Below are positions 13,347 to 54,474 of a stretch of 64,000 bases of DNA, one piece after another. The notes beneath the pieces were generated by a model, which saw only the letters and a program-made list of their open reading frames with translations, made no database searches and was not told the DNA's origin. Each line of letters begins with the position of its first letter. Positions within the stretch are counted from its first letter, which is position 1. The stretch is taken from the NCBI GenBank assembly GCA_963750915.1, contig CAVVSF010000002.1:394303-458302 (forward strand), given 5' to 3'. Source of the stretch: an uncultured Acidobacteriota bacterium. GTDB lineage: Bacteria; Acidobacteriota; Vicinamibacteria; Vicinamibacterales; 2-12-FULL-66-21. The translations under genes and the position numbers were made by a program.

Positions 13347-13420
13347 AATCCCAGGCGGCTTGATGGTCGGGTTTTATTGGAATGATTCATGCGTCTCGTA
13401 GTCGAGGTGGGAACTTCATC

Positions 13421-13807: not shown

Positions 13808-13903
13808 TGTCGGGTGTTGTGTTTGCGGTCGTGAGAGTCAACGCAGATTCGGAAGCCGATCGTATGTGCTGTTCTGGTGGTAGTTCTTGCCGCGGGAGTA
13901 GTT

Positions 13904-18672: not shown

Positions 18673-18887
18673 GCCGCCGTGACCGATCTCCCGAATCAGG
18701 CGGTACGGGCCAAGACGTCCCTCCTGCCCGGCATCGGCCGGAACACCGGGCGTCGGGGTTGGTACGGGCGTCGGGGGGGAAGCTCACGGGCAGAAAGAAT
18801 ATACCGGCCGGGCGCACACCTCGACTGTTCGCTGCCTGCCGCAGGGTATACGATGCATCGTCATCGAATCGCCCAAGGGAGGCAAAC

Positions 18888-19649: not shown

Positions 19650-19665
19650 AACCAGGAACGCGCGC

Positions 19666-28534: not shown

Positions 28535-28926
28535 CCTTCGACGAACAACGCCTGATCCTCGACCGGAGTTACGACGCCTCGCTGGACGCGGTTCTCGCCG
28601 CCCTCGTGCGCGAAGGCTTCGCCGTGAATCCGCTCGACGCCGGCGATCTCCATCGCCCGGGGTGCCCTGGTCCGGAACGCCGCTATGCCTCCCTCGATGC
28701 GGTCCTGCCTGAATTCGCGTTCCGCACCAGCCGCGTCGGCGACACGACAGGCGGGTTCGGGTGCCGCGTCTCGATCTTCGAGCTGACGGTGTGGTGCACG
28801 CTGGTCACGGTCGAGACACCGATGGCGCGGTATCCCGGTCTCTCGGCGTTGCTGCCGCGCGTGGCCGACCGCATCGAGCGTTTCGTGAACGCGCTCGTGC
28901 ATGTCGGTGTCGTGACTGCCGCCTGA
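28531..28926 (+). CDS. small soluble protein, DUF302-like
   Basis: The ATG overlaps the hemG-like stop (ATGA). Size and the N-terminal pattern (SYDASLDAVLAALVREGFAV) resemble DUF302. Weak call. Confidence 0.4.
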   Translation: MTFDEQRLILDRSYDASLDAVLAALVREGFAVNPLDAGDLHRPGCPGPERRYASLDAVLPEFAFRTSRVGDTTGGFGCRVSIFELTVWCTLVTVETPMARYPGLSALLPRVADRIERFVNALVHVGVVTAA

Positions 28927-28958
28927 GGGCGCGGCCAGGGACGAGCGAGACGATTGCG

Positions 28959-29511
28959 ATGTCGAATCTTGCGCGCGCATCCACCCATCGGGAGCCGGTC
29001 GGTGCCAGGGAGGTGGCGCAGCATTACCTGCGCGATCTCGTCTACGGCGCCAATGACGGCATCATCACGACGTTTGCCGTCGTCGCGGGGGTCGCCGGCG
29101 GGGCACTGAGCGGCCGCGCCGTACTGATCATCGGCTTCGCGAACCTGGTCGCCGACGGGCTCTCGATGGGGGTCGGCAACTACCTCGGGATTCGGGCGCA
29201 GGAGAGCGCGCTCATGGCGCGTGGCCTGCCGGAAGAGGAAGCGCTGCCTGGTACGTCACGGCATCGCCACCTTCGCCGCGTTCGTCGTCGCCGGCGCGGT
29301 GCCCTTGATGCCCTACGTCGTGACGGCGCGCCACGGCCTGCTGCTTTCCACCTTGTTCACGCTCCTGGCGCTCTTCACCGTCGGCAGCCTGCGGTCGCTC
29401 GTCACCGTCGATCGGTGGTGGGCGGCTGGTCTCGAGATGCTCGGCCTTGGTGTCACCGTCGCGGCGGCGGCCTACGGCGTCGGAGCCCTGGCTGGCGCGA
29501 TCGCCGGATAG
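28959..29511 (+). pseudogene. VIT1/CCC1-family Fe/Mn transporter, split by a +1 frame break near 29244-29256
   Basis: The first part (LRDLVYGANDGIITTFAVVAGVAGG...GFANLVADGLSMGVGNYLG) is in the frame of ATG 28959. The continuation (RHGIATFAAFVVAGAVPLMPYV...GLEMLGLGVTVAAAAYGVG) is in the +1 frame (ORF 29221-29511). Deleting one G of CCTGGTA restores ...EEEALPVRHGIATF. Confidence 0.75.
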
Positions 29512-36727: not shown

Positions 36728-37624
36728 CTACTTGCGTCCCGCCTGGCGGTAGGAGCGAATCAGCTGCAGATCCTGTTCTGCCGCCGGGTAGGAAGGCAGG
36801 CCTCGAGCCTTGGCGGCCTTGATCGCCGCGACGACGAAGAATTCGGCCGCCTCGAGCTCCCGCTCGAGAATCAAGACGCTGCCGAGGCCATTGAGCGCCG
36901 CCGGATCGGCCGGATCAATTGCCAGCGAGTCGAAGAAGCGGCGCTCCGCGTCGACGAGCAGCGGATCCGCGGGTGCGCGACCGGCCTGGATCGCATCCCA
37001 GTGCTTCAGCATGTAGGCGTTCTTCTGATGGTAGCCATCGAGGTTGACGACGACCGGATCGAACGGCCAGGCTCGCGTCGCTTTCGTCATCACGTCGTCG
37101 AGCAGTTGCTGCAGCTCCGAGGCTTTGTCGAGATCGCGCGCGAGCAGCGCGTCCGTCATGAGCTGCTGGCCGTTGGCGGTAGTCGCGATGGCTTCGGCCA
37201 GGTCGGCCGACTCGCTGCGCATCGGCGGGAGCACGTTGTTGCGCGCCGCCGGCGCCTCCCGTACCGCGCGCGTCACCCGCTCGAGGCTGGCGCGGCTGCC
37301 GCGGCCGAGCGGCATGTACACCGTCGACTGCAGGCACTGCGGCAACAACGTGTCGTCGAGCTTGCAGGGGACGATGAACTTGTCGAGGTGGTACGCCGTC
37401 AGCCATTCGGCATTGATCCAGCGCGACTGCGACGCCGGCTTCGACCAGAGCAGGACCACGGTTCGGGATCGGCCGATCTGCTTTTGCAGCTCGCTGCGAA
37501 GCAGGGCGCCGAGATTCAGGTCCGAATCGTCGAGCCAGGCCTCCAGGCCGGCGGTGGCCAGAGCCGCCTCGACCTTTCGTGCCAGGAGGCGGTTCTTCGA
37601 AGAGTGAGAGATGAATGCGTCCAT
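36728..37624 (-). CDS. TIR domain protein with C-terminal TPR-like helical repeats
   Basis: N-terminus DAFISHSSKNRLLARKVEAALATAGLEAWLDDSDL...RTVVLLWSKPASQSRWINAEW is a TIR fold and retains the conserved Glu (E73). C-terminal helical repeats (ALNGLGSVLILERELEAAEFFVVAAIKAAK). AGGAG Shine-Dalgarno. No signal peptide. Confidence 0.8.
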   Translation of the reverse strand: MDAFISHSSKNRLLARKVEAALATAGLEAWLDDSDLNLGALLRSELQKQIGRSRTVVLLWSKPASQSRWINAEWLTAYHLDKFIVPCKLDDTLLPQCLQSTVYMPLGRGSRASLERVTRAVREAPAARNNVLPPMRSESADLAEAIATTANGQQLMTDALLARDLDKASELQQLLDDVMTKATRAWPFDPVVVNLDGYHQKNAYMLKHWDAIQAGRAPADPLLVDAERRFFDSLAIDPADPAALNGLGSVLILERELEAAEFFVVAAIKAAKARGLPSYPAAEQDLQLIRSYRQAGRK

Positions 37625-37822
37625 GTCGGTGCTCCTGCCGATCTGCCGCTCCAGACCCGTACCTCGGCCGCCCGGGGCCGTCCCGTCGCCCTGTTTAACG
37701 CCATTGCCAGCCAGAGGGAGCCAGTCTCAGGAACTCCTAAGGAAGTGGTCACAACTGCGGGCGGCCCCGACGCGTAAAGTGAGGGCAGGCGCCGGGAAGC
37801 AGACATCCGCAGGAGGTTCGCC

Positions 37823-40063: not shown

Positions 40064-40148
40064 GTACGCTCCTGCGCTCGATCATATTGCAGGGGAGTGG
40101 ACCAGGCAGGAAGAAGAAAAGGTGGGGGAGAGGAAGACAGGAAAGAGT

Positions 40149-40174
40149 GCGGCCGGGGCGACGGCCCCGGCCGC
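40149..40174 (-). terminator. stem-loop downstream of the gene 40199-40729
   Basis: GCGGCCGGGGC-GACG-GCCCCGGCCGC gives an 11-bp stem. On the minus strand it is followed by the T/C-rich tract ACTCTTTCCTGTCTTCC. Confidence 0.55.
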
Positions 40175-40198
40175 ATGCGACGACACAACGAGTCTTGG

Positions 40199-40729
40199 CT
40201 AGTTGCTGGCGATCTCTGCGAGATCCGATTTCGCCTCGGATCGGGCGCGCGCGACTTCGGCCTTCGCGTCGACGTCCGGCTTGTACTCCCCGATGGCGTC
40301 GGTCAGCGACCGTCCTTCGTTGAGCACCTGGTGCTTCAGCACCATGAACGGAACGCCGGTGTTGCGCGCGGCGTGCGCCACGGTCGCGAACTGCTCGGCG
40401 GACGTGAACCCTTCCGCCGCGATCTCCAGCTTGGCGCCGCGGTTCAGTACCGGCTTCAGGCGCGCATGCAGCCGCGGCTCACTCGCCGCGACCGCGCTGA
40501 CCGGCGCGGATTCGCGCGGCGCTTCCGCCGCCACCGGCCGCACCGATCTGGCCCGCGCCGTACGCGCCGCTGGCTTCGCCGCCGCCGGCTCAGTCACGAC
40601 CGCAGGCGCTTCGACGACTGACTCGCTTTTATCCGACATCCGATCCGTAATCGACGGACCGATTGCAACGCCGAGTGCGACGGCTCCGACGAACCCGGCC
40701 GTCAGCGCGAACGCTTTACCAACCGTCAT
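40199..40729 (-). CDS. membrane-anchored hypothetical protein
   Basis: N-terminal TM helix (AFALTAGFVGAVALGVAIG). Ala/Pro-rich linker. Conserved-looking C-terminal domain. No family recognised. Confidence 0.55.
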   Translation of the reverse strand: MTVGKAFALTAGFVGAVALGVAIGPSITDRMSDKSESVVEAPAVVTEPAAAKPAARTARARSVRPVAAEAPRESAPVSAVAASEPRLHARLKPVLNRGAKLEIAAEGFTSAEQFATVAHAARNTGVPFMVLKHQVLNEGRSLTDAIGEYKPDVDAKAEVARARSEAKSDLAEIASN

Positions 40730-40855
40730 GAGTTGTGCTCCCTCCGTCTGACTCAGCGGCCCTATTACCGCTCACCGTGAAGAGTGCAAGAAGCGTGACC
40801 ACCAAGCTGGGCCGCGGACATTCGCCGACTATTCGATGAGCTCCAAGCCCAGGTG

Positions 40856-40941
40856 AAGGCTCAGGGCTCACGGCTCAAGGCTCAGGGGGCGCAAGGCTCA
40901 GGGCTAGAGCTGAAAGCTGACGGCTGAGAGCTGAAAGCTGA
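40856..40941. repeat. degenerate heptanucleotide tandem repeat, (GGCTCAN)x4 then (NRGCTGA)x5
   Basis: GGCTCA occurs at 40858, 40865, 40872 and 40879, and again at 40895. GAGCTGA, AAGCTGA, CGGCTGA, GAGCTGA and AAGCTGA run from 40907 to 40941. The 7-nt period places TGA in all three frames: on the + strand in block 2 and on the - strand in block 1. Confidence 0.85.
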
Positions 40942-41069
40942 CAGGCCTGTCGGCTTCTGCCGCCCGTTCTCGATCTGTAGAGACAAGCGAGTTTTTGGGA
41001 ATGCCCGGGCAGCGCGAAGTCAATCGACGGCCGCGCCGGACCTGGGCTCGCGCGAGGAGCACACAAGCC

Positions 41070-41552
41070 ATGCCGGACAAGAGGGAAAGCTATCAGCCGA
41101 CGACGACCGCGATGGCGTCGGTCGCGGCGAACGACATGCCGAGCCAGAAGTCGATCGATCTGCTGATTCGACTGCTGCAGGAGTTCGATGCCCGCTCATC
41201 GTCAACGACATCGAACCTGCCGCCGGAGGTCGAGCGCGCGGTCGCCGAGGCCAACGCGGCATTCGATTCGATCAAGGCCAGCCTCCAGCTTCTCGAGAGC
41301 CCGGTGACGATCGCCGAGGTAGTGCCGAGTCGTGGCAGCAGGTCCGGCCAGACGCGCGTCAGGCTCATCGGGTCGCACTTCGTGTCTGGAGCGACGGTGC
41401 TGTTCGGCACGAAGCCGGCCACCGAGGTCTCGGTCGGCTTGACGGAGATCGTGGCAACCACGCCGGAGAACGACCCGTGCACCGTCGACGTCGTCGTCCA
41501 CACGCTGGCCGGGGCGGCGATCAAGTCGGGGGGCTTCACGTATCACAGCTAG
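41070..41552 (+). CDS. IPT/TIG domain protein with helical N-terminal region, no signal peptide
   Basis: GAGGAG lies about 10 nt upstream of the ATG at 41070. C-terminal IPT/TIG pattern (VTIAEVVPSRGSRSGQTRVRLIGSHFVSGATVLFGTKPATEVSV...TVDVVVHT...GGFTY). Confidence 0.8.
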   Translation: MPDKRESYQPTTTAMASVAANDMPSQKSIDLLIRLLQEFDARSSSTTSNLPPEVERAVAEANAAFDSIKASLQLLESPVTIAEVVPSRGSRSGQTRVRLIGSHFVSGATVLFGTKPATEVSVGLTEIVATTPENDPCTVDVVVHTLAGAAIKSGGFTYHS

Positions 41553-41595
41553 CGCTCGCCGCTGGCGACATACGTCAGGCCATTCAGGAGGCAAC

Positions 41596-42795
41596 ATGTT
41601 CCGTACGTTTGCGAAGGTTTCCGGCCTCGGCGCCCAGGGGCTCTTCCAGTTCCACCCGGCGGATCTGATCGCGCTGCTCGAGCTCGCGTGGGACCACCGC
41701 GCCGAGGGCGTCGGGCTGCCGCTGGGCCATCCGCTCCACCGCAGCGATCTGACGCGGTTCGAGGACAGCTGGTTCGGCCGGCGCGCGTTGCAGCCGCCGG
41801 CGCCAGCGCCGCCGCCGACGCGGCCGCTGCAGCCCAATCTCAACCTGCTCATCAACGCGATTGGCGGCCCCCCCGACTTCCCGCCACGGCACCACGTGCT
41901 CTGGGATCACCTCGTCTACGCCTACATGGTGGAGAACACGAGGATCGTCGAGATCTTCCGCCGCGTCGTCCACGAGCTGACGCATGGCGAGAAGCTCGGG
42001 GCGCCGAGCGTCGCGACACTGCACTGGCTGCGCAACACCGAGGAGCTGTTCTACCGCGACGGTCCGTCGTATTTCGCGCCGTCGCTCCACAGCTCGGCGC
42101 GGCCCGACAGCGAGGCGATGCGGCGCGCGACCTACCACCGCTTGCTCGGCATGGACCTCAATCACGGGACCGCCGACAACAAGCCGTATCCGTTCACTCG
42201 CGCCGAAGCGGCGAACAAGGAGTTCGTCAGCACCTTCGAGGAACTGCTGCGCGAGGTGTGGATCGGGATCATCAACGCCGGCAACAGCAGCGGTATCAAG
42301 TCGACCGACGATGCGAAGCTGGCCGAGTTGACGCAGACGCTGCAGGAGATGCTGCTCGCCAGGCGGCTGCAGGGCAGCCTGTCGCGAGAGGAATATGCCT
42401 GCGTCTCGATGATGTCGTGGTTCCACATGACGGTCGAGACCGACACCCCGGTCGTCATCGACCTGCGTGCCCAGGCGACCAGCGCCGAGCAGCGCCTCTA
42501 CAAGATCGCGCAGCTCGTCGGCGTGCCGGCGCACGGCCTCGCCGGCAGCTACTTCGACATCGCGGACTCGATCTCGAAGGTGCTGCTCCTCGTCGAGACC
42601 GGCATCTTCACCCAGGTTCCCAAGGCGGTCACCGCCTTCTACACCCCCGCGTCGCCGCTCGAGACGGTGATGCGCACGATCATCACGCACTGGTCGGTGA
42701 TCACCGGCCGCGACATGAAGGCCGGCAAGATCGCGCCGGCCGACGCGCCGCGGCGGCCCGTGCTGGCGATGCCGGCGGCCGAACGCGTCGGCTGA
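41596..42795 (+). CDS. hypothetical protein (399 aa), no recognisable domain
   Basis: AGGAGG lies 6 nt before the ATG. Coding-like composition. Distinctive segments WDHLVYAYMVENTRIVEIFRRV and EFVSTFEELLREVWIGIINAG. No signal peptide. Confidence 0.7.
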   Translation: MFRTFAKVSGLGAQGLFQFHPADLIALLELAWDHRAEGVGLPLGHPLHRSDLTRFEDSWFGRRALQPPAPAPPPTRPLQPNLNLLINAIGGPPDFPPRHHVLWDHLVYAYMVENTRIVEIFRRVVHELTHGEKLGAPSVATLHWLRNTEELFYRDGPSYFAPSLHSSARPDSEAMRRATYHRLLGMDLNHGTADNKPYPFTRAEAANKEFVSTFEELLREVWIGIINAGNSSGIKSTDDAKLAELTQTLQEMLLARRLQGSLSREEYACVSMMSWFHMTVETDTPVVIDLRAQATSAEQRLYKIAQLVGVPAHGLAGSYFDIADSISKVLLLVETGIFTQVPKAVTAFYTPASPLETVMRTIITHWSVITGRDMKAGKIAPADAPRRPVLAMPAAERVG

Positions 42796-42855
42796 AGCCG
42801 GCCGAGCGAGTACCGAGCAGTCCAACTGCACTGAAGCCTGAAGCCCGAGGTGTGT

Positions 42856-45355
42856 ATGTCGACGGCCAGCGCGCGAGCGCCAATCGTGCCGGGCGCGGAT
42901 GCGCCCTATCTCCAGGGTGCCGACGCGCCCTTTCTGAACGTCCCCAGCTTCCGCCGCGAGGAGGGCGAGGCGCCGGCCGCAGCCCGACCGGCGCCGCCGT
43001 GGACGCCGTTCCTGTCGGTCTACGAATCGTCGAACGGCAATCACTACGAGGCCGAGCAGCCGCTCCGCGAGGAGTACGCGGCACTCGTGAACGACCTCTA
43101 CGACGAGGAGTTCGACGAGGCGCTGTTCGAGCTGCAGACCAGCGCCCGCGGCCTGCACCAGGACTACCTCGCTTCGGGCCACAGCACCGCCGCCGCCGAT
43201 CGCGTCATCACGCAGCACTTCGCGGAACTGATGCGCGAGTCGGAGGCGATGGTCGACGCCATGGCGCGGGAGCTTGGCGCCCGGCCGGGGGCTGTCGTCG
43301 AACAGGAGGTCGATCAGTTCGCCGAGGCCTACATGCCGTCGGGCTCGCTCGAGCCCGAGTTCCAGGACTTCCTCGGCAAGCTGGCGAAGAAGATCGGCCG
43401 AGGCGTCAAGGCCGTCGCGAAGAAGGCCGTCAAAACCGTGGCGACGCTCGGTCTGGCGCCGCTCCTGGCGAAGATCAAGGCCCTGGTGCGGCCGCTGCTC
43501 AACAATGTGCTGCAGAAGGCGATCGGCCGGCTGCCAGCGGAAATCCAGCCCGCGGCCAGGCGGCTGGCCGAGCGGCTCGGCTTCATCAAGCCGGCGCCGG
43601 CGACAGCGACGAACGCGGCCCAGTCCGCGACGCGGCGGCGACGCCGTGGCAGCGGCGGTGCAGGGAGCCGCGGATGCTGGCGAACCGGGTGCCGACGCGG
43701 GTTCGCCCGTGCAGGCGGCCGCCGGCGCGGACGCGTCGGAGATGCAGCTCGAGTTCGATCAGCTGGTCGCCGAGGCGATGCTCTCCGGCGACGAGGTCCA
43801 GATGGAGCTCGAGGTCGCCCGCCTCGCCTCATCGTCGACGGCCGCAGCGGCGCCGGTGTTCGGCGAGCTCGACGAGGCCCGGGCGCGGTTCGTCCAGGAG
43901 CTCGAAGGGCTGAAGGAGGGAGAGAGCGCGGCGCCGTACGTGGAGAACTTCCTGCCGGCGGTGCTGCCGGCGGTGCGGATCGCGATGCGGCTGATCGGTC
44001 GGCCGAAGATCGTCGGCTTCCTCGCCGGCATCCTCGGCAAGCTGATCTCGAACCTGGTCGGGCCGCAGCACGCGCCGGCGCTGTCGCGCGCCATCGTCGA
44101 CGCCGGGCTGAAGCTGGTCAGCCTCGAGGCGGAGGATCAGGAACACCCGCGCATTGCGGCCTCGGCGGTCGCGGCGACGGTTGAAGAAACCCTCGTCCGC
44201 GTGTCGTCGCTTCCGGATCATGTGCTCGACAACCAGGAGCTGCTCGAGGGTTTCGCGCTCGAGGCCTTCGAGCAGGCCGCGGCGGCCAACCTGCCGGCGC
44301 TGTTTCCCGACGCGACCTATCGCAAGCGTCCGGATCTGCTCGAAGGCGGCGTCAACGCCGCGTGGGTGATGCTGCCGGCGCGCCGGCCGCGCTACAAGCG
44401 GTGTTCGCGGACGTTCAACGTCACGATCACGCCGCAGATGGCGGAAGCGATCGAGAGCTTCGAAGGGGCGCCGCTCTCGGAGTACCTCCAGGATCAGCTG
44501 GGAATGACGGAAGGGGAGTCGGTCGAGGCCGAGGTGCACCTTTACGAGGTCGTGGCAGGGGGCACCGCGGCGGACATCGCGCGCAGCGAAGCGGAAACGC
44601 CCGGGCTCGGTTCTGCCGACGAAGTCGCGATCTCGCAGCTGCAGCCGCTGACGCACGAAGCGGCCGCGGTCCTGCTCGGACGTCCCGGTCTCGGCCGCAC
44701 GCTGCCTTCCGGCGCGCACGTGCGCCGGCTGGCGCCCGGCCAGCGCGTCTACCACATGGTGGTCGGCCGGCGGCCGCTGACCGTGCCCGGCCCGGGCGGC
44801 CGGCCGCGAGTGCGCCGGCTGGCGCGGCTCGACGTCGCCCTCGACAGTACCCGCGACGAGGCTCGCGTCCGCGTGTATTTCAGCGAAGTCAAGGCGCAGC
44901 GGCTGGCGGTGCGCCTTCGCCAGCAGTCGCATGCCGGCTCGCTCGCCGTCGCGTTCACCAGGATGCTCGCCCGGGCGCTGCCGCCGATTCTTCGCGGCAC
45001 GCGGCCGCGCCGGTTCCGCCTCGTGCACCAGGGCGTGGCGCCAGGCGATCGCGCGGCGCTGTCGCAACTGCCGGCCGCCGTGCCGCCGGTGTTCGTCACG
45101 AAGATGCAGGAGTGGCTCGTGGCGGCGTTCGCCGAGTTCGCCAAGGCCGGGGCGCAGACGTTCCTCGCCGCGGCCGAGGATCCGGCCGACGGCGTCTCGC
45201 TGATCTTCACCATCGCGCAGCCGCCGGGGCTGAAGGCGATCGCGCAGGCGATCGCGCAGAAGGGTGGCGCGCCAGCGGACGTGGCCGAGGCGATCGGCAA
45301 GGCCGCGGCGCCGGCGGTTCGCGTCGAGGCGTTCGCAGGGTTGAAACGTGACTGA
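42856..45355 (+). CDS. large hypothetical protein (about 830 aa) split by a +1 frame break near 43630-43642
   Basis: The N-terminal part is in the frame of ATG 42856 (through ...FIKPAPATATNAAQSAT). The rest is in the +1 frame (DAVAAAVQGAADAG... to GLKRD-stop at 45355). Each frame turns to Arg/Gly junk beyond the junction. Contains two Lys/Arg-rich amphipathic modules. Confidence 0.7.
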
Positions 45356-46607
45356 CCCGTTCGAGGCGATCCGGGCGCAGACCGAGCGCCAGGTGGCGCA
45401 CTGGTCGCTTGCCGCCGCGCGTCTGGCGCTCGACGACCTTGCCGCCCCGGAAGCGTGGAGCCGCCTCGAGCAGTACCTTGGCGTCGCGCTGCGGCGGCAC
45501 CTGCAAGGGGTCATCGATCGCGTCCGCGGCTCGGCGGACGTGCTCGTCACCCTGAATCGGACGGCCCGGACGCCGAGCGAGCTGGTCGAGCTGCGGCGGC
45601 GGCTGCTCGCGTTCCGGCGTCAGTTCCTCCGCGCGGAAACCACGCTCGACTACTTCGCGGACGCGATTGCGACGCGAACCAGTACCGACGGGGCGGCGCT
45701 GCTGCGCGCCTGCGATTCGCTCGCCTACCGCAGCATGGCCCAGATCCTCGATCCGATCGGCAAGCCGTCGCCGGCGGTTCTCACCTACATCGACAAGGGT
45801 CTCGGCGCGTCGATCCTGAAGGCCGGCCTGCGGCTCTGGGACGCGGGTGACCTGAGCCCGGTCGCCGCCGTGAAGATCACGCGGCACAACATCCTGCGGC
45901 CGACGGCGCTCATCCACGAGGCCGGCCACCAGGTGGCGCACATCGCCGGGTGGAACCAGGAACTGGCGGCCGCGCTCTCGCAAGGGCTGGCGGCGACGTC
46001 GAGCGAGCTGGCCGGGATGTGGGCGGGATGGGCGTCGGAGATCGCCGCCGACGCCGTCGCCTTCGTCCACACCGGCTTCGCCAGCGTCGCCGCGCTCCAC
46101 GACGTGCTCGCCGGCGAGACCTCGACGGTGTTCCGTCACACGCCAGGCGATCCACATCCGATCTGCTACCTGCGCGTGCTGCTCGGCGTCGAGATGTGCC
46201 GCCGCTTCTTCGGCAGCGGGCCCTGGGACGACCTCGCCCGTTCGTGGATGGTGCTGCACTCGCCGCGATCGGCGCCGCCCGGGCTGCGGCGTCTGCTCGA
46301 CGAATCGATGCCGGCGCTGAAGACGGTCGTCAGGATCACGCTCGAGACGCCGATGCAGGCGTTCCGCGGCGCGCCGCTGCGCGCGATCGTCATGCCGGAG
46401 CGGGTCAGCCCGGCGGCGCTCGGCGAGATGGCCGATCGCATCGGCCCGGCGCTCTTCACCTCGTCGCACTGGCTGTGGACCGAATCGCTGCGAATTCTCG
46501 CGCTGACCGGCTGGCAGCTCGCGACGCGGCCGCAGGATCTGCGGCAGATTCTCGCCGTCCAGGAGCAGGCCATGCTCCGCCTCGGCGGCGCGCGCCAGGC
46601 CGCGTGA
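45348..46607 (+). CDS. HExxH...ExxxD (gluzincin-like) putative metallopeptidase
   Basis: The GTG start overlaps the upstream stop (GTGACTGA). HEAGH starts at nt 45915 and EIAAD lies 36 residues downstream. No signal peptide. Family not recognised. Confidence 0.65.
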   Translation: MTDPFEAIRAQTERQVAHWSLAAARLALDDLAAPEAWSRLEQYLGVALRRHLQGVIDRVRGSADVLVTLNRTARTPSELVELRRRLLAFRRQFLRAETTLDYFADAIATRTSTDGAALLRACDSLAYRSMAQILDPIGKPSPAVLTYIDKGLGASILKAGLRLWDAGDLSPVAAVKITRHNILRPTALIHEAGHQVAHIAGWNQELAAALSQGLAATSSELAGMWAGWASEIAADAVAFVHTGFASVAALHDVLAGETSTVFRHTPGDPHPICYLRVLLGVEMCRRFFGSGPWDDLARSWMVLHSPRSAPPGLRRLLDESMPALKTVVRITLETPMQAFRGAPLRAIVMPERVSPAALGEMADRIGPALFTSSHWLWTESLRILALTGWQLATRPQDLRQILAVQEQAMLRLGGARQAA

Positions 46608-46643
46608 CCGTCGTCACAAGTCTTCCGACGAACAGGAACCAAG

Positions 46644-48129
46644 ATGCTGCGCACTGCATTTCTTCCGGCCAACGCTTTCGAGTCGCTCGAAACGCCGTTC
46701 CTCTCCGAGGCGATCGTCAGCCGCTCGCGCAATCCCGAGCCGCAGCCCGAAGGGGAAGGCGAAGCGCTCGAGGCCACAGAAACTGAAGAGGAAGGTGAAG
46801 CCGAGCGCCTGGCGGCCGCCGAGTCGTTTGCGATCGCCCCGGAGCCCTACGAGGAGGCGCTGGACTTCATCGAACGGCCGGAGAACGAGGTGGCGTCGTC
46901 GTTCGCGGCCGAGGCAGAAGCCTGGCCCGTCGATCGCGAGGCGGACCACGACGAAGCGCAGGTTCAGGACGAAGGGCGACAGGACGAATCGTTCGATGGC
47001 TGGGAGGCGGAAGCGGAGGCTCCAGACGTGACCGACGGGTTCGCGCCGGCCGACGTGTCGCACGAGCAGGACGCAACGGGCGCATGAGGCCGGAGGAGCC
47101 GGCGTCAGCGACGAGGCTGCCTGGGAGTCGTCGTCCTCGGAGGTCGACGTCGCGAGCGAAGACGAAGTCCTCGGCAATGAAGACCGCGTCGTGATCAAAG
47201 ACGCGCTGGTGGTACCGAACCGATGGATATGTGCCCTGGACATCTGGGAGGCGAACCCGAAGTTCGGTTCGGGGACGAGCCAACCGCGCGAGACCCTGAC
47301 CGCCAGAGGCACGGGCATCCTCATCGGTCCCCGGCATGTGCTGACGGCGCGGCACGTGATCGAGGGGTTCGTCGCCGGCGGGGCCGGCCGCATCAAGAAG
47401 ATCACTGTCAGCGCCGGCCGCAGCGAGACCAACTCGTCGAATCCCTTCGGGCAGCGCCACGTCCTGACCGCGCACCAGTCACGACCGTTCCTGGTGGACC
47501 CGCGCAATCCGAGGAGCCTGGTTCGCGAGGACTGCGCGTTGCTCGTACTCGACAAGGATCTGGCCGGAGCCACGCACAAGCGGCTCAGCGTGCCTCTCGG
47601 GTTCTGGGGCGAGAACCAGAAAGTGGCGGTCATCGCGGCACTCGGCGACAACGTGCTGCACGGCGCGGACGTCAACGTCACGGGCTATCCGGGCGATTCG
47701 TGCGGGACGACGCTGATGAAGAGCAGGTCCACGTCAATGGCCAAGCTCATTGAGAACTGCCGGGCGCGCCCTGCCGACGTATGGGCGTCGACGCAGTTCG
47801 GCGCCCCGGGGGTTCTCGACGCACGCAATCACCCGCGGGTGATGTTCCACACCGCCGACACATTCAAGGGGCAGAGCGGCGCGCCGATCTGCCTCTTGCG
47901 TGACCGCGTTCTGCACCTGGTGGGCATTCACATCGACGGCGACAACCCGCAGCGAAACCAGGGGCAGCGGCTGACGCGGCGGTTGCTCGACGAAATCGCG
48001 GCCTGGATCAACCTGGATCCGGCGATTGCGACGGCGACGGTTCAGAACGACACGCTGACCGTCAGGCGCGCGGTGCCGGCGCCGGCCAGGGCCTCAGAAA
48101 TGGAGCAGGGCGATGACCGCGAAATCTGA
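46644..48129 (+). CDS. acidic N-terminal region fused to a trypsin-like (S1, V8/Glu-endopeptidase-like) serine protease; +1 frame break within 47032-47087
   Basis: ORF 46644-47087 is extremely acidic. The protease frame is open from 47032, and its translation upstream of GTG 47191 continues the acidic theme (SDEAAWESSSSEVDVASEDEVLGNEDRV). There is no Shine-Dalgarno at 47191. Triad motifs LTARHVIEG, EDCALLVLD and GQSGAP. Confidence 0.7.
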
Positions 48130-51063
48130 ACCGCAGATCTTCGTCGTCGGTGCCGACTTGCGGCCGCTGGCGGATGGCCGCTTCGCGATGTCACCAGGGG
48201 ACGGTCGTCGAGAAGGGGTCGCTCGGCAAGGACGGGCGCGCCGCCGTCGCCCGGATCGATCTCAAGCGGCCGTTCGTCTTCGAGGTCGAGGATCGCGCCT
48301 GTGCGATCCGCTCGGGTGCGTTTCTCAACCCGGACGATCCACGCCTCGAATATGGAGGCACCTGGTTCGACTGGACGCTGGTGCGGGACGGCCAGAACCC
48401 CGACAAGCGCTTCTGGCCGTACTACCAGAAGGAAATGGATACCGAGCCGCGCGCCGGCGTCGACTGCTTCATGCAGCACGAGCACATCACGCGCCGGCCG
48501 ATCCAGCTGACGCAGCCGGTGCTGCTGCAGCACGGGAAGGTGATCATCCGCGCGACGCCGGTCCGGATCCGGGTCGGGCCGATGGTGCGCTACACGGATC
48601 ACGAGCGCGCCGTGATCTGGATGGAGACCGTGACGCCGGCGATGGTGCGCGTACGCCGCGTCAAGACCGGCGTCGCCGACGAGAAGAGCGGCTACGCGCG
48701 TCACCGTGCGTGTCGGCGGCCGCTACTTCGCCGCGGTCGAGCTCGAAGGTCTGAGTGAAGATACGTTCTACAACTACACCGTGGAACTCGCGCCGCTGCC
48801 GGCGGCGGCCATTCCGCAGACCGTGGCCGAGATCGAGAAGGTGTTTCCGCCGCTGACCGGGGCCGTCCGGTCGTCGATCGAGACGCAGTGCACGGGGGCG
48901 TCGCTGGCGTCGGGCCCGTGGCTGACGTTTCGCACGTTGCGCCGGCGATTCGACACGCAGATGCGGTTTGCCTTCGGCTCGTGCCGCTGGTTTCCAGGCG
49001 ACAAGAATCACGAGGGAAAGGACAAGGGGCCCGACATGCTCGAGGGCCTCGGCAACTGGCTGAAGAACACCCGCCGCGATCTCTGGCCGCGGTTCCTCTT
49101 CATGGGCGGCGACCAGATCTACTCGGACGAGATCGGTCTCGGGCACGGGAACAAGCTCGCGATCTCACGGTTCGCCGCGCGCGTGCCCGGCCCGCCCGAT
49201 CCGCGGGGCCTCCGCGACAAGCTCGTCGACGGGGCATGGGGCGGACGCTTCGCGCACCGGTTCCAGGCATTCAAGGTGCCCGATGCGAAGTGGGTGGGGC
49301 ACGTCAAGGACGGCATCCAGAAGCTCGACAAACTTCGCAAGGATCATCCGGATATCCAGGAGATCTACAAGAGCTATCCGGACGTCGATCGACGGAAGGC
49401 GCTCGAAACCCGGCACGCGACCTTGAAGACGCGGCGGAAGGACGTCCAGGGCGCGAAGATGAACGAGGCGGGAGACGAACGGCTGGCGCGCCTGGCAGTC
49501 AACGCGCTGTCCGCCGTCGAGACGTTCGAGCTCGCGTCCGAGCCGTTCCGGGCCGCGTGCGTCCACTGGGACGCCGCGGCGCAGGCGCCATGGCGCAATC
49601 CGATGTCGCTGGGTTTTCTTGCCCAGAACTTCGCGCTCTGGTCGATCCCCAACTTCGAGGCCGCGCTCCCGACGGTCCAGACGTCGCAGGGGTGGACCGT
49701 GGCGCGCGGCGCCGGCGGCCGGGCGCATCCGCCGGCGGAGCGCGGCCTGCACGCCGCCGACTTCGCCGAGTACGCCTACCTCTATCAGCGCGCCTGGACC
49801 AGCGCGCCGGCCGTCCGGTCGCTGCTCGCGCACCTGCCGACGTTCCTGATGTTCGACGACCACGAGGTCACCGACGACTGGAACTTCGACGCCGAGTGGG
49901 TGCGGATGCTGCACAACCCGAAGGACGAGCTCAAGATGTGGCCGAAGACGCTGACCGATGCGCTCGCGGCCTACTGGGTCTATCAGGGGTGGGGCAACAA
50001 GGCGCCGTCGCAATGGCCGGCCGCCGACCCGCGTGCCGCGGCGCTCAACGAGGCGCGGAAGAACGGCACTGACGCGCTGCCGCAGCTGCGGCGCGTGATC
50101 TACAGCGCCTGCTGGAGCCAGGTGCCGGCGAAGAATGCGCCGTCGTTTCAAGCCGGGCTCGGCCTCGACTGGCACTACCGCCTGCCGTTCGACCCGCCCT
50201 TCCTCGTTCCGGACTGCCGCACGCGCCGGCTCATGGTCGCGGCCGATGACGGCCTGCGCGTGATCGATCAGGACGACGCGAAGAAGGCGCCGATGTCGCA
50301 GACCATCGACGAGCGGCAGCTCGCCTGGATGCGCAGCATCCTCGTCGATCAGTGGCGCGGCGGCCGGGTGGCGTTCCTCGCCCCGTCGACGCCGCTGCTG
50401 CTGAAGAAGAAGTTCATGACCTTCATGCGCGAGCCGGAAGTCGCGGCCGGCATCTGGGCCCGCGGCGCCGACATCGCCGGCATCGTCTCGGTCGTGCTCG
50501 ATTCGAAGTTCTGGGGTGTCGCCACCAACGCGATGCTGCGTATCTTCAGGCGCGGCCAGGATCTCGAGCACATGATCCGTGACCGGAGCTGGCGGGACCT
50601 GTGGTCGCTGATCGAGGACATGCGCAAGAAGGGGAGCGCCGTCCAGTCGCTGGTGCTCGTCTCCGGCGACGTGCATCACAGCTATTGCATGACTGCGAAC
50701 CCGTCACGGACCGGCCGGGCGCGTCCCGAGGTCGTCCAGCTGACCTGTTCCGGCTTCCAGACCACAATCCGCGGCGACAAGAAGTCCTGGCTGGCGGAGC
50801 AGCTCTCGAGCCTGCCCTTCGACGTCGGCGCGCGGCGGATGGTGCCGGGCTTCACGATGAAGGACGGAAAGGGGCGACCCGACCTCGTGCTGTTCGAGAA
50901 CGCGGCGGCGATCGTCGACGTCTCGATGGGACTCGAGACAGACATCGTGCTCACGTATCTCACGCGCGACAAGGAATTCAAGAAACAGGTTCAGCATGTA
51001 TACCGATACACTTCCGCGCCCCGCTATCTCAAGAGCAACGGCGAAACAGCCGTTGCGCTGTAG
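48113..51063 (+). CDS. PhoD-like metallophosphoesterase with N-terminal extension; two +1 frame breaks (about 48197-48200 and about 48694-48702)
   Basis: Three consecutive frames join sensibly: MTAKSEPQIFVVGADLRPLADGRFAMSPG / TVVEKGSLGKDGRAAVARIDL...VRYTDHERAVIWMETV...EKSGYA / RVTVRVGGRYFAAVELEGLSEDTFYNYTV.... Metallophosphatase motifs GGDQIYSDE, FDDHEVTDDW and SGDVHHSY. No TAT or Sec leader. Confidence 0.75.
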
Positions 51064-51223
51064 GCCGACCGGACGCGGGTCGCTCGACGGCGCCGTGCGC
51101 GGCAGCGGCACAGTGTACGGAATGGATGAGATGGGCCGGGCGCTGCAATACTCGACCGTCGCTTCCGCGTTCGCGAGGGTCTACAATCTCGACGTTCGTC
51201 CTGGCGCCGCTTGGCGTTTACCT

Positions 51224-51238
51224 CAGTGTCGGACACTG
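51224..51238. promoter_or_regulatory. perfect 7-bp inverted repeat immediately upstream of the ECF sigma start codon
   Basis: CAGTGTC-G-GACACTG ends 6 nt before the ATG at 51245. It may be an operator or a hairpin occluding the ribosome site. Confidence 0.4.
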
Positions 51239-51244
51239 TTGAAC

Positions 51245-51814
51245 ATGCACGGTAGCGTCAGCTCACTCATCACCGCCGTCGAGCGTGGCGATTCGTCATC
51301 GACGGAGGCGCTGTTCACGGCGCTGTACTCCGATCTCCGTCGCCTGGCGCGCCAGGAGCTGTCGCGTCGCGGCGCCGGCGTGACGCTGACGCCGACGGCG
51401 CTGCTGCACGAGGCGTATCTCGAGATCTCGAAGCGAGACGGCGCGATGTTCGTCGACCGCGCCCGCTTCATGGCCTATGCCTCGCGCGTGATGCGCGGCC
51501 TGATCATCGACTACGCGCGGGCGCGCCGGGCGCAGAAGCGCGGCGGCCAGTTCGAGATGACAACGCTCGATGCCGAGCCCGGCCGACGGCTGGTCGACGA
51601 TCGCGAGCTCGTGGCGATCAGCGACGCGCTCGACGAGCTCGCCGCCGTCGATCAGGCGCTGGCGGAGGTCGTCGATCTCAAATTCTTCTGCGGCTTCTCG
51701 TTCGGCGAGATCGCCGGCATGCGCCAGGTGTCGGAACGTACCGTGCAGCGGCAGTGGGACAAGGCGCGCATCTACCTGCACGGCGCCCTCCGCGACGCCC
51801 GTCTCCTGGCGTGA
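51245..51814 (+). CDS. ECF-type RNA polymerase sigma factor (kinase-associated ECF class)
   Basis: The region-2 motif TALLHEAYLEI and the region-4 HTH FFCGFSFGEIAGMRQVSERTVQRQWDKARIYL are typical of the ECF class found next to Ser/Thr kinases (recalled as TIGR02999/PF07638-type). Confidence 0.85.
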   Translation: MHGSVSSLITAVERGDSSSTEALFTALYSDLRRLARQELSRRGAGVTLTPTALLHEAYLEISKRDGAMFVDRARFMAYASRVMRGLIIDYARARRAQKRGGQFEMTTLDAEPGRRLVDDRELVAISDALDELAAVDQALAEVVDLKFFCGFSFGEIAGMRQVSERTVQRQWDKARIYLHGALRDARLLA

Positions 51815-51846
51815 CCCCAGGTTTCGTTCACCGCCCGGAGCCGCGG

Positions 51847-54474
51847 ATGTCAGGACTCGGCCGTCGACTCGACAACGATCGCTGGAAAGCGGTCAGCCCC
51901 TACCTCGATCGCGCCATGGACATGGAGCAGGGCGAGCGCTCCGCCTGGCTGGCGACGCTGCGCGAACAGCATCCGGCCGTCGCCGCCGATCTCGAACAAC
52001 TGCTCGACGAACGCGACACGATTCTCGAGGAGGGGTTCCTCGAAGAGGAGTGCCCGCGCCCCGGCACGCCGATCGCGGGCGGCATGGAGGTCGGCGCCTA
52101 CCGGCTGGTGTCGCCGCTCGGCCAAGGCGGCATGGGCACGGTGTGGCTGGCGGAACGCGCCGATGGCCGCTTCGAAGGGCGCGTCGCCGTCAAGCTGCTG
52201 AACCTGTCGCTGCTCGGTGCGCGCGCGTCGCGCGCTGAAGAACGGTTCAAGCGCGAGGGCAGCCTGCTCGCGCGGCTCACGCACCCGAACATCGCGCGTC
52301 TCATCGACGCCGGCGTCTCTCCCGACGGGCAGCCCTATCTCGTCCTCGAATACATCGACGGCGTGCCGATCGATCGCTACTGCGACGCGCGCGCGCTCGA
52401 CATCGCGGCGCGCCTGCGCCTCTTCCTCGACGTCCTGGCGGCGGTGGCGCACGCGCACGCGAACCTGGTCGTCCACCGCGACGTCAAGCCGTCGAACGTG
52501 CTCGTCAGGGCCGACGGCGCCGACGGCCACGTCAAGCTTCTCGATTTCGGCATCGCCAAGCTGCTGCAGTCGGACGAACTGCCGGCGCTGACCCGCGAAG
52601 GCGGCGCGGCGCTGACGCCGGAGTTCGCGGCGCCGGAGCAGGTGACGGGCCACCAGGTGACGACGGCGACCGACGTCTACGCCCTGGGCGTGCTCCTGTA
52701 TTTGCTGTTGTCCGGGCGCCACCCGGTGGATATCGGTTCCATGTCGCCGGCGGACCTGGTGAAGGCGATTGTCGATACCGACCCGCCGCGGCCGTCGGAC
52801 GTCGTGACTCGGCACCTGTCGCGCCCGCCGTCGGTCGACGACACGACCACGACTGATTCGGCGGGCGAGGTGATGGAGCCGCTGCCGGCGATCGCCAGCA
52901 GGCGGGGTACGACGCCGGAGCGGCTCAGCCGCCTGCTGCGCGGCGACCTCGATACGATCGTCGCCAAGGCGCTGCGCAAGAGCCCGCAGGATCGCTATCC
53001 TTCGGTGACGGCGCTGGCGGACGACCTTCGTCGCTACCTGGCGCAGCAGCCGATCAGCGCCCGGCCGGACACGCTGGCCTATCGCACCGCCAAGTTCGCC
53101 CGCCGTCATCTCGGCGCCGTCATGATCGGATGCGGCGTCGTCGCGATCATCGCGCTGCTGATCGGTTTCTACACCGTGCGCCTGACCGCCGAACGCGATC
53201 GCGCCCGCATCGAGGCGCAGAAGGCCGCCAAGATCAGCGAGCTGATGACCGAGCTCCTGACCGGCGCCGATCCGTTCCGCGACAAGCCCGATCCGACGCT
53301 GCGCGAGCTGCTCGACGCCGGCGCCGCCAGGCTGCGGCAGGAGCTCGCCGGTGAGCCCGAGATTCTCTCCGAGATGCTGACGTCAATCGGCCGCGTCTAT
53401 CAGCGGCTCGAGGTCAGCGACAGGGCACAGGCGATGCTCGAGCAGGCGCTCGCGCTCGGCCGCAGCGTACCCGGTGGGGAACACACGCGCGTCGCTGACA
53501 CGATGAACGATCTCGGGGTGCTGCTGCGCATGAAAGGGGACGCCAAGGCGTCGGTCTCGATGCTCGACGACGCGCTTTCGATGCGGCGTCGGCTGCTCGG
53601 TCCGGTTCACAAGGATGTCGCCGTCACCATCTCGGAGCTCGGCCGCTCCTACGGCAGCCTGGGCCAGCCGGCGCGGGCCGAAACACTCGCGCGCGAGGCG
53701 CTGGCGATGCGCCGCGAGATCTTCGGCGAGCGGCACCGTGAGACGGCGACGACGATGGGCGACCTGGGGTTGCTCTTGTGGCAGCGCGGAGATTTCGCCG
53801 GCGCCGAACCGCTGCTGCGTCAGAGCCTGGAGATCAGCCGGGCCACCCTCGGCGGGCGCCACGCGAATGTCGGCTCGGCGCTCGCCAACCTGGCGCTGGT
53901 GGTCGCCGACCTCGGCAATCACGCCGAGGCGGAGACGCTCTTGCGCGAAGCGGTGGTCGTCCGGACCACGGCGCTGGGGCCGCGGCATCCATCGCTGGCG
54001 ATCACCTGGAACAACCTCGCGTATCCGCTCCGCGAGCAACGCAAGTACCCGGAAGCGATCGCGGCGATGGACGAGGCGCTGGCGCTGGCGATCCCGGCGC
54101 GCGGCGACGACAGCCCGACGGTCGCGACCTACCGGATCAATCTCGCGAGGGTGCATGTCGCCAGCGGCGACGGCGCCGCGGCGGAGCCGCTGTTGCGGCG
54201 GGCGCTGGCGGTCCGCCGCCAGGCCTACGGCGACGATGATTGGCGGGTCGGGACGGCGCGGAGCCTGCTCGGCGCCGCCTTGACCTCACAGCGACAGTAC
54301 GCTGACGCCGAGCGGCTGCTGCTCGATGCTCAGCGAGTCCTCAAGGACGAGCCCGGCGCCCAGGGGCGCGAGGCGAAGGCGAACCGTGTCCGACTCCAGG
54401 CGCTCTACGAGGCATGGACGCGGCCACGCGGGCCCGCCCTTGTCGGGCGCGTGACGCCTGTCAGGTTCTATTAG
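51847..54474 (+). CDS. Ser/Thr protein kinase with N-terminal sigma-partner region, TM helix and TPR array
   Basis: YRLVSPLGQGGMGTVWLAE, VAVKLL, HRDVKPSNVL, DFGIAK, APEQ. TM helix LGAVMIGCGVVAIIALLIGFY. TPR repeats. The alternative GTG start at 51811 overlaps the sigma stop (GTGA). Confidence 0.9.
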   Translation: MSGLGRRLDNDRWKAVSPYLDRAMDMEQGERSAWLATLREQHPAVAADLEQLLDERDTILEEGFLEEECPRPGTPIAGGMEVGAYRLVSPLGQGGMGTVWLAERADGRFEGRVAVKLLNLSLLGARASRAEERFKREGSLLARLTHPNIARLIDAGVSPDGQPYLVLEYIDGVPIDRYCDARALDIAARLRLFLDVLAAVAHAHANLVVHRDVKPSNVLVRADGADGHVKLLDFGIAKLLQSDELPALTREGGAALTPEFAAPEQVTGHQVTTATDVYALGVLLYLLLSGRHPVDIGSMSPADLVKAIVDTDPPRPSDVVTRHLSRPPSVDDTTTTDSAGEVMEPLPAIASRRGTTPERLSRLLRGDLDTIVAKALRKSPQDRYPSVTALADDLRRYLAQQPISARPDTLAYRTAKFARRHLGAVMIGCGVVAIIALLIGFYTVRLTAERDRARIEAQKAAKISELMTELLTGADPFRDKPDPTLRELLDAGAARLRQELAGEPEILSEMLTSIGRVYQRLEVSDRAQAMLEQALALGRSVPGGEHTRVADTMNDLGVLLRMKGDAKASVSMLDDALSMRRRLLGPVHKDVAVTISELGRSYGSLGQPARAETLAREALAMRREIFGERHRETATTMGDLGLLLWQRGDFAGAEPLLRQSLEISRATLGGRHANVGSALANLALVVADLGNHAEAETLLREAVVVRTTALGPRHPSLAITWNNLAYPLREQRKYPEAIAAMDEALALAIPARGDDSPTVATYRINLARVHVASGDGAAAEPLLRRALAVRRQAYGDDDWRVGTARSLLGAALTSQRQYADAERLLLDAQRVLKDEPGAQGREAKANRVRLQALYEAWTRPRGPALVGRVTPVRFY

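Follow-up and report, generated by a model that had tools for sequence, protein, structure and literature searches.

Polymorphic toxins, reportedly described as such by Zhang, Aravind and co-workers in 2012, join a constant N-terminal trafficking region to variable C-terminal toxin domains, while 'type 10' secretion is a holin/endopeptidase-dependent route related to phage lysis cassettes. Here we report on a locus that shares traits with both. It lies in a 64 000-nucleotide (nt) stretch of DNA from an uncultured Acidobacteriota bacterium (contig CAVVSF010000002.1; the whole stretch is called the window below), where six plus-strand genes, g1 to g6, occupy positions 41070-51063. Comparison with related loci indicates that g1-g4 form a conserved core and that g5 and g6, coding for a trypsin-like protease and a PhoD-like phosphoesterase, belong to a class of variable, mostly N-terminally tagged cargo. 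We are highly confident that this system exists and has the architecture laid out here. As to its role, we lean, with slightly better than even confidence, towards an undescribed system for the tag-dependent deployment of antibacterial lytic enzymes. A literature search by keyword only, which is weak evidence of absence, found no published description of the cluster, in line with an initial annotation of the window that had known of no described system with this composition.

The core genes and their products

The initial annotation had treated all six genes as one unit. Conservation points to a smaller one, as it is g1-g4 alone that recur across phyla, whereas the slot held in the window by the S1 protease and the PhoD-like enzyme is variable. 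In a one-genome-per-species scan we recovered 39 loci, and tblastn searches with the intact proteins of the nearest relative, L001 (80% identical), found g3, g4 and g2 together in 34 of them; three of the other five are short, partial contigs. When all 49 sequences examined are considered, window included, the three genes stand together in 42, and four of the remaining seven are short or truncated contigs. Their usual order is g3, g4, a small gene and g2, permuted to g1-g2-g3-g4 in the lineage of the window, and the 8-nt overlap of g3 with g4 is found again in L001, L044, L045 and L047, distant loci included. The question raised at the outset, i.e. whether homologues of the six genes keep together in other genomes, can be affirmed for g1-g4, which co-occur widely, but not for g5 and g6 as constant partners. 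In L035 and L043 the gene order is retained and the PhoD gene is missing.

What travels together through at least 10 bacterial phyla and archaea are three large, very highly conserved families that lack annotation in Pfam and NCBIfam as well as in PADLOC, PHROGs and the PDB. Profile searches with all three and structure searches with g2 and g4 placed none of these orphans in a described pathway. The carriers belong to the Acidobacteriota, Chloroflexota, Actinomycetota (Streptomyces, Nonomuraea, Thermoleophilia), Cyanobacteria, Alpha-, Beta- and Gammaproteobacteria, Myxococcota, Planctomycetota, Nitrospinota, Bacteroidota, Calditrichota and Zhuqueibacterota and to the archaeal genus Methanosarcina; among the cultured ones are Geomonas sp. 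RF6, Rhizobacter spp. (e.g. Rhizobacter sp. OV335), Streptomyces and Nonomuraea strains and Methanosarcina sp. MSH10X1. Searches with g2 in plasmid and phage collections (tblastn) and a scan of IMG/VR returned nothing. All-versus-all clustering of the open reading frames (ORFs) of 42 sequences gave the families of an extracytoplasmic function (ECF) sigma factor and of a Ser/Thr kinase as the sole recurrent extras.

The second gene of the window cluster, g2 (41596..42795, + strand), codes for a very highly conserved protein of 399 amino acids (aa) that is predicted to be all-alpha; the family is ~390 aa long and ~42-62% identical across phyla. More than 1000 homologues were found at E<=1e-3, none of them with a Pfam domain and the top 120 being 53-99% identical, and an exhaustive profile search gave 662 clusters at 50% identity. 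The protein has no match in Pfam, NCBIfam, PADLOC or PHROGs; a profile search of the PDB gave chance matches only (coiled coils, designed proteins), and the AlphaFold2 (AF2) model, all-alpha with a predicted local distance difference test (pLDDT) score of 70, matched nothing at E<0.2 in the PDB and viral structure libraries (Foldseek). A Joint Genome Institute (JGI) label, 'XRE-family HTH regulator' (helix-turn-helix), that is attached to some g2 homologues was dropped, as no profile match backs it. Two Nitrospinales sequences, L028 (10001-11107) and L034 (10001-11071), have a g2 homologue of 44-45% identity that lacks g3 and g4 neighbours within 10 kb, so g2 is also able to occur independently of the core.

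The product of g4 (45348..46607, + strand) has 419 aa, as have almost all of its 2457 homologues, and is probably a metallopeptidase, judging from its motifs. An HExxH motif combined with ExxxD is typical of gluzincins, e.g. thermolysin and neprilysin, and g4 displays both, HEAGH (45915-45929) and EIAAD (46038-46052), each within a predicted helix. The residues H190, E191, H194, E231 and D235 are invariant over 20 sequences from many phyla, at an overall identity across phyla of ~44-70%. Apart from this putative gluzincin signature g4 matched no entry of Pfam, NCBIfam, PADLOC or PHROGs, its PDB profile search gave spurious coiled-coil matches only, its AF2 model (pLDDT 77) found nothing in the PDB with E<1 (Foldseek), and an exact-sequence look-up of the window protein found nothing on record.

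The largest core protein is that of g3 (42856..45355, + strand), with ~830 aa in a family of ~800 aa and 709 homologues. Its frame is broken at ~43600-43650 in the window, where it aligns in two frames to the intact, 837-aa counterpart of L001. In all 18 family members compared, the N-terminal region is acidic (charge -17 to -29) and the next ~80-97 aa are positively charged (+7 to +33), their hydrophobic moment being 0.51-0.96; in the window this cationic amphipathic stretch lies 3' of the acidic region at 43360..43584 (+ strand; FQDFLGKLAKKIGRGVKAVAKK...RLAERLGF). The remainder of the protein consists of a linker, which varies, and of a C-terminal domain of ~540 aa, which is conserved. The layout resembles that of a cationic membrane-active segment held in a neutralized state, and by this resemblance g3 would have membrane activity; the cationic stretch might also be a binding partner for the acidic linkers found in the cargo (see below). 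Searches of Pfam, NCBIfam, PADLOC and PHROGs gave no match for g3 either, and a PDB profile search found chance matches to coiled coils or designed proteins only. According to hhalign, g2, g3 and g4 are not paralogues of each other.

The small subunit g1 (41070..41552, + strand) consists of an N-terminal helical region and an IPT/TIG Ig-like domain (PF01833; 33.3 bits against a cut-off of 20.9, residues 105-183), and its orthologues in L001, L043 and L047 are likewise annotated as TIG. At other loci the corresponding gene, of 70-180 aa, lies between g4 and g2, and its product may or may not include a TIG, CARDB or other Ig-like domain; this type of gene is weakly conserved in sequence, yet it is nearly always present and encodes a helical hairpin. 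The product calls of the initial annotation (TIG in g1, the HEAGH/EIAAD motifs in g4, trypsin in g5, PhoD in g6, no recognized motif in g2 and no catalytic motif in g3) are borne out by Pfam and by the motifs. The same can be said of its statement that Sec or twin-arginine translocation (Tat) leaders and transmembrane (TM) helices are lacking: in the L001 orthologues, Kyte-Doolittle plots and regular expressions revealed no clear Sec/Tat leader, Walker A motif or TM helix, g2, g3 and g4 having a single borderline 19-residue hydrophobic peak each (Kyte-Doolittle 1.6-1.8).

Tagged cargo and its possible site of action

The genes that adjoin the core, mostly directly 3' of it, vary by locus and encode products of 430-1730 aa. 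Their domains comprise Trypsin_2, PhoD with DUF7800, PLDc_2, VanY, M15_3/M15_4, M23, 3D, SLT, DUF2272, Amidase_6, PG_binding_1 and OmpA-like domains and in one case a flavin amine oxidase, and they are shuffled between proteins (PhoD with trypsin, trypsin with other modules, VanY with M23 and 3D). Nearly all Pfam-assigned cargo is envelope-degrading; no nuclease, NADase or deaminase is among it, about eight cargo proteins being without Pfam assignment. Because other loci mostly hold peptidoglycan hydrolases, phospholipase D (PLD) or oxidase genes in this place, the trypsin-like and PhoD-like genes of the window are variable cargo and not fixed partners of the core. Most cargo proteins start with '(L)ESPFL(D/N/S)EE(L/I/V)F', often followed by 'PFxxxF' ~27 residues on and then by a strongly acidic low-complexity linker. 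We counted this tag in 27 of 520 non-core ORFs on the same strand as compared to 2 of 750 ORFs on the opposite strand, and additional tags seen by eye lie almost always in the gene abutting the core. Searched for as a regular expression throughout the window, it is found in g3 and g5 only.

In the window, the first cargo gene, g5 (46644..48129, + strand), encodes the tag LETPFLSEAIV (46692-46718), an acidic linker (49 acidic versus 8 basic in 163 residues) and a trypsin-like domain that qualifies as an S1 peptidase by its His/Asp/Ser triad motifs (TARHV, DCALL, GQSGAP) and its Pfam scores (Trypsin_2, 37 bits versus a threshold of 27.6; Trypsin, 28.4 versus 20.6). The second, g6 (48113..51063, + strand), shares 17 nt with the end of g5 and is itself untagged; it encodes an N-terminal region of ~200 aa, DUF7800 and a PhoD-like phosphoesterase with the motifs FGSCR, GGDQIY, FDDHE and SGDVHH and with long insertions. 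Its Pfam score for PhoD (PF09423) is 31.1 bits versus a threshold of 27, reached over profile positions 50-130 only, and DUF7800 is also above its cut-off. In two Rubrivivax loci (L022, L039) a g6-type enzyme and a trypsin domain form a single tagged protein, and in L037 such an enzyme stands separately with its own tag. Four cargo proteins, among them the PhoD-like protein of L001, had no match in the PDB (phmmer).

These findings bear on two simpler explanations of the locus. The initial annotation had proposed an intracellular module, and a six-gene regulated-proteolysis or defence cassette, the two proteases and the phosphoesterase of which act on cytoplasmic targets, would agree with the tight coupling of the genes, with the lack of a signal peptide on any of the six products and with the six-gene order retained in L001. 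However, most other loci have peptidoglycan hydrolases, PLD or an oxidase where the window has the protease and PhoD, and PG_binding_1, SLT, M23 and VanY domains have no cytoplasmic substrate, so that we consider such a cassette very unlikely. Since export is the rule for S1 proteases and for enzymes of the PhoD family, g5 and g6 could also be thought to form an ordinary Sec/Tat-secreted phosphate-scavenging and protease locus. Yet neither protein has a Tat RRxFL motif or a clear hydrophobic leader (by hydropathy and regular expression in the L001 orthologues), both genes belong to a locus built around a conserved four-gene core of orphan proteins, and elsewhere the same slot carries unrelated lytic enzymes; in place of classical signals we find a distinct, shared N-terminal tag. 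This possibility, which the initial annotation had itself named as a way in which it might fail, is disfavoured to the point of being hardly credible.

Similar motifs are found at the N terminus of g3 (42925..43026, + strand), where APFLNVPSF and TPFLSVYE lie 26 residues apart; in other phyla the N-termini of g3 have PF motifs at the same spacing, 'PFLDVxSF' and then 'SPFxSVYE'. A hidden Markov model (HMM) of the cargo tag matches g3 N-termini weakly, with E-values from 6e-4 to above 1, and on these grounds we regard the likeness as a shared motif rather than as firm homology. A short N-terminal tag common to unrelated enzymes is reminiscent of encapsulation peptides, and it is conceivable that g2, possibly with g3, assembles into a cargo-loading particle or compartment, in which the tag serves as encapsulation signal and the enzymes are stored and then released as a particle. 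The identity of g2 (~42-62%) and g4 (~44-70%) across phyla is typical of tightly packed assemblies, and the cationic stretch of g3 could be a binding site for acidic cargo linkers. On the other hand, g2 is predicted to be all-alpha and bears no likeness to HK97-type encapsulins, other shell folds or any viral protein, and the cargo is lytic, unlike the metabolic or oxidative-stress enzymes of known compartments. We therefore think a compartment improbable.

Some loci depart from the usual arrangement of tag and cargo. In L024 (11053-14478), a cargo ORF begins with a flavin amine-oxidase domain and has its SPFL tag internally, at about residue 590 and ahead of a Geo_799-like module; either two genes were merged by the ORF call or this is cargo with an internal tag. 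In L002 (Geomonas sp. RF6; 11165-13883), an ORF of 103 aa consists of the bipartite tag alone and is followed 8 nt on by an untagged 799-aa protein, which represents either a split gene or a separate tag-adaptor. L027, L029, L031, L032 and L033 (Thermoleophilia/Solirubrobacterales/Actinomycetota) have a response-regulator receiver-like gene after g2 (~11230-12060) and no tagged cargo there; in this actinobacterial subgroup the cargo may be located elsewhere, or regulation may differ.

With respect to the site of action, the loci of Methanosarcina are of particular value. The isolate locus L009 and the metagenomic L045/L046 are syntenic over 21 kb, and from their DNA identity (~80-84% in the flanking blocks that align best, 68-84% over all blocks) they belong to different species, both of which have the system at the same chromosomal site. 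With 48-52% G/C the cluster stands apart from its flanks (40-42%), in agreement with a horizontal acquisition long ago. Murein is absent from Methanosarcina, but its cargo contains SLT and PG_binding_1 domains and in L009 also DUF2272 (all three above the Pfam thresholds in L009); therefore the SLT/PG_binding_1 cargo finds no substrate in the cell that makes it, and its targets must be bacteria. Because of this case, and because the Pfam-assigned cargo is nearly all envelope-degrading, we favour a cargo that works outside the producer against other microbes over the intracellular cassette of the initial annotation, which would have to keep murein-degrading cargo in a murein-less cell. According to a 2025 study that does not mention the cluster (PMC12352652), 68% of archaeal peptidoglycan hydrolases are without a known signal peptide.

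The Methanosarcina loci also weigh on a more serious competitor, programmed self-lysis or abortive infection. Triggered via the ECF sigma/kinase pair that adjoins the cluster, g4 would cut acidic pro-regions, the cationic part of g3 would permeabilize the cell's own membrane in a holin-like manner and the cargo would then destroy the cell's own envelope. This reading is kept alive by the lack of an immunity gene next to the peptidoglycan-hydrolase cargo and by the lack of visible export machinery or signal peptides; the pro-peptide-like layout of g3 (acidic, then cationic amphipathic), the protease in the core, a weak LmuA-like PADLOC match of the g5 trypsin domain and a TIR_2 protein 3.3 kb upstream in the window also speak for it. 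Against it, two species of murein-less Methanosarcina keep intact SLT/PG_binding_1 cargo (with DUF2272 in L009) that is unable to lyse its producer. Moreover, the Pfam-assigned cargo contains no nuclease, NADase or typical abortive-infection effector (about eight cargo proteins being unassigned), the core has no PADLOC match, its surroundings are not a defence island, and the phage, IMG/VR and plasmid collections do not contain the system. Taking both sides into account, self-lysis is rather unlikely, though the strongest of the competing explanations.

For the tag-dependent deployment of lytic enzymes, we envisage the following course. The core would recognize the N-terminal tag of its cargo through g2 or g4 and deploy the tagged enzymes outside the producer against other bacteria, with g3 acting as a membrane-permeabilizing partner or a scaffold. 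Maturation would be the task of g4 as a protease, and in some lineages the operon would be switched on by the ECF sigma/Ser-Thr kinase pair next to it. The cargo of the window would be the tagged trypsin-like protease together with a translationally coupled PhoD-like phosphodiesterase.

Several points weigh against this model. No component is an obvious membrane channel or energy source, and export would have to proceed without visible machinery. No immunity-like gene lies 3' of the peptidoglycan-hydrolase cargo in the annotated loci, which is unusual for interbacterial toxins. The window g6 and some other cargo (e.g. that of L040) have no tag, and the similarity of g3 to the cargo tag is at the motif level only (HMM E-values 6e-4 to above 1). 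The structure models of g2 and g4 are of only moderate confidence and gave no match, so that the roles given to these proteins are guesses. Finally, the four frameshifts of the window copy, which we discuss below, might be real.

A bolder version of the deployment model takes the core to be a secretion or delivery system of a new class, independent of the type of envelope, for lytic enzymes tagged with 'SPFL...PFxxxF', and g3 to be a membrane breacher activated by a protease. Core carriers span monoderm and diderm bacteria as well as archaea, and we put this version forward tentatively, as a possibility that falls short of an even chance. If tagged lytic enzymes are indeed deployed, the system would be a new route of microbe-on-microbe attack, it could explain how many leaderless peptidoglycan hydrolases exit the cell, and it would provide a simple sequence tag for finding new antibacterial enzymes. 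As cultured carriers exist, the question of deployment is directly testable.

The window copy and its surroundings

In the window, g1-g6 follow each other on the plus strand with junctions of 43, 60, -8, 36 and -17 nt (ORF listing), with ribosome-binding sites ahead of g1 (GAGGAG, 41070) and g2 (AGGAGG, 41596), and with an uninterrupted coding signal over 41070-51063 as judged by the periodicity of G/C at third codon positions (GC3). The spacings, the overlaps and both ribosome-binding sites are as the initial annotation had given them; the reading frames are not all intact, as four single-base frameshifts in total disrupt g3 (~43600-43650, within its Ala/Pro-rich linker), g5 (~47000-47085) and g6 (~48196 and ~48697). 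Across every break the GC3 periodicity and an aa identity of 62-74% to L001 continue, and there are no in-frame stops. In L001 all six genes are intact and in the same order, with the same -8 and -17 overlaps and the same pair of an ECF sigma factor and a kinase-TPR gene 3' of them.

Four frame changes in 10 kb, hitting three genes, could be taken as signs of a decaying pseudogene cluster that is non-functional in this organism, and a public collection indeed carries the g3 of this contig as a truncated product of 569 aa. However, an unrelated VIT1-family gene of the window (28713-29511) is likewise split over two frames, with Pfam profile positions 1-66 and 134-213 in different ORFs, so frame changes also occur in the window beyond the cluster. 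The contig of origin measures 793 kb, and the related long-contig metagenome assemblies L035 and L043 are fragmented in a similar way. Because of the split VIT1 gene, the intact L001 and the similar fragmentation of L035 and L043, the four frameshifts are probably assembly indels; given also the continued periodicity and identity over all breaks, we see only a slim chance of true decay. The contig of L042, a close relative (96.6% DNA identity), stops just short of the g3 frameshift site.

Upstream of g1, Tandem Repeats Finder (TRF) detected two heptad arrays at 40858..40941 (GGCTCAG x6.6, then AGCTGAA x4.9), the repeat noted by the initial annotation. L042 has fewer copies and L001 has other short repeats (GTGCGGA/GTGCGAA) at the same place; the arrays may lie outside the system. 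Between arrays and g1, an element of ~35 nt (40962..40996, + strand; TGTC...CGTTCnCGATCT) with columns invariant in the window, L042, L001 and L035 stands out from a leader that diverges at other positions. Three of these four (window, L001, L035) have the ECF sigma gene 3' of the cluster as well; the L042 contig is short and ends before that point. From its conservation, the element may be a promoter or operator of the operon, possibly of the ECF type. A scan for sigma-70 promoters and terminators was uninformative, and no sigma-70-like promoter was found for the operon.

Directly 3' of g6 lie an ECF sigma factor gene (51122..51814, + strand; Sigma70_ECF, PF07638; start codon uncertain), which is likely a regulator, and a gene for a Ser/Thr protein kinase with TPR repeats (51754..54474, + strand; Pfam Pkinase, TPR_12 and TPR_10; alternative starts at 51811 or 51847). 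Pfam thus agrees with the initial annotation on this pair. An ECF sigma homologue stands beside the core in 9 of the 49 sequences, in both orientations; the kinase, paired with the sigma factor in the window, adjoins the core in other lineages too, and one or both are present in 10 of the 49 (several orientations; Acidobacteriota and Burkholderiales). A second kinase-TPR paralogue (16156-18783, minus strand), 51% identical in the kinase domain, is located next to a second trypsin-like gene (18615-19649, + strand) and an alpha/beta hydrolase gene (19594-20478, + strand).

The other neighbours of the window cluster are mostly metabolic genes. The TIR_2-domain protein 3.3 kb upstream (36728-37726, minus strand) is separated from it by TIM-barrel and aldo-keto reductase genes. 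Of the conflict or defence cassette proposed at the outset, a syntenic, conflict-type system remains; a defence island does not, as neighbours are mostly metabolic and PADLOC gave no informative match. Relative to L042 the window has extra segments at 40110-40267 (158 nt) and 40334-40789 (456 nt) according to blastn; because these span most of an unannotated minus-strand ORF (40199-40771), this ORF is dispensable or not real. The idea that window and L042 have different upstream neighbours was rejected, blastn showing the same neighbour with two indels.

Comparison with described systems

With the anti-phage systems collected in PADLOC there is little overlap: g1-g4 and g6 have no match, and the g5 trypsin domain has the weak LmuA-like match mentioned above. 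Encapsulins and the present system have in common that a tag exists on the cargo; they differ in that g2, predicted to be all-alpha, has no fold match to HK97, viral or PDB structures. For g3 and g4 only, an analogy can be drawn to the precursors of eukaryotic antimicrobial peptides, in which an anionic propiece neutralizes a cationic amphipathic peptide that is freed by a protease. In our case, a conserved acidic N-terminal region (charge -17 to -29) precedes the cationic amphipathic stretch of g3 (+7 to +33), and the gene of a dedicated metallopeptidase-like protein, g4, overlaps g3. But with ~800 aa, a conserved C-terminal domain of ~540 aa and no signal peptide, g3 differs from such precursors, and we speak of resemblance, not of homology.

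The effectors of extracellular contractile injection systems and of type VI secretion systems (T6SS), i.e. peptidoglycan hydrolases and phospholipases that N-terminal signals direct into the apparatus, are similar to the cargo in being leaderless and envelope-degrading and in having an N-terminal recognition region, and their spread also includes archaea, actinomycetes and cyanobacteria. In contrast to them, no sheath, tube or baseplate gene and no T6SS or type VII secretion system (T7SS) gene was found within 10 kb in the eight annotated sequences (L001, L002, L043-L048), and beyond the ECF sigma factor and the kinase there is no extra gene family common to the loci. Holin-endolysin cassettes and 'type 10' secretion share with our loci leaderless peptidoglycan hydrolases (SLT, M15/VanY, M23) beside a cationic amphipathic protein, and the lack of an immunity gene. 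Here, however, the core has neither holin-type TM helices nor a PHROGs match, there is no phage context and nothing in the phage and IMG/VR collections, non-murein enzymes are among the cargo, the system is kept in a murein-less archaeon, and the three large core proteins have no counterpart in lysis cassettes.

As for polymorphic toxins, the differences concern mainly the partners of the variable proteins. No type V secretion system (T5SS), T6SS, T7SS, contractile injection system or Sec gene lies within 10 kb in the same eight sequences, and no homologue of the core proteins was detected among described systems. An adjacent immunity gene is also missing: in L044, L045 and L047 the cargo is followed by convergent, unrelated genes (small unannotated ORFs were not exhaustively examined), and 3' of the window cargo there is the ECF sigma gene. 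Further, the Pfam-assigned cargo is envelope-degrading and without nucleases, deaminases and NADases. The general design is nevertheless that of a polymorphic toxin system: a constant, short N-terminal module is combined with enzymatic domains that are shuffled between loci, the cargo is located at the 3' end of a conserved operon, and the spread across phyla is patchy and looks horizontal.

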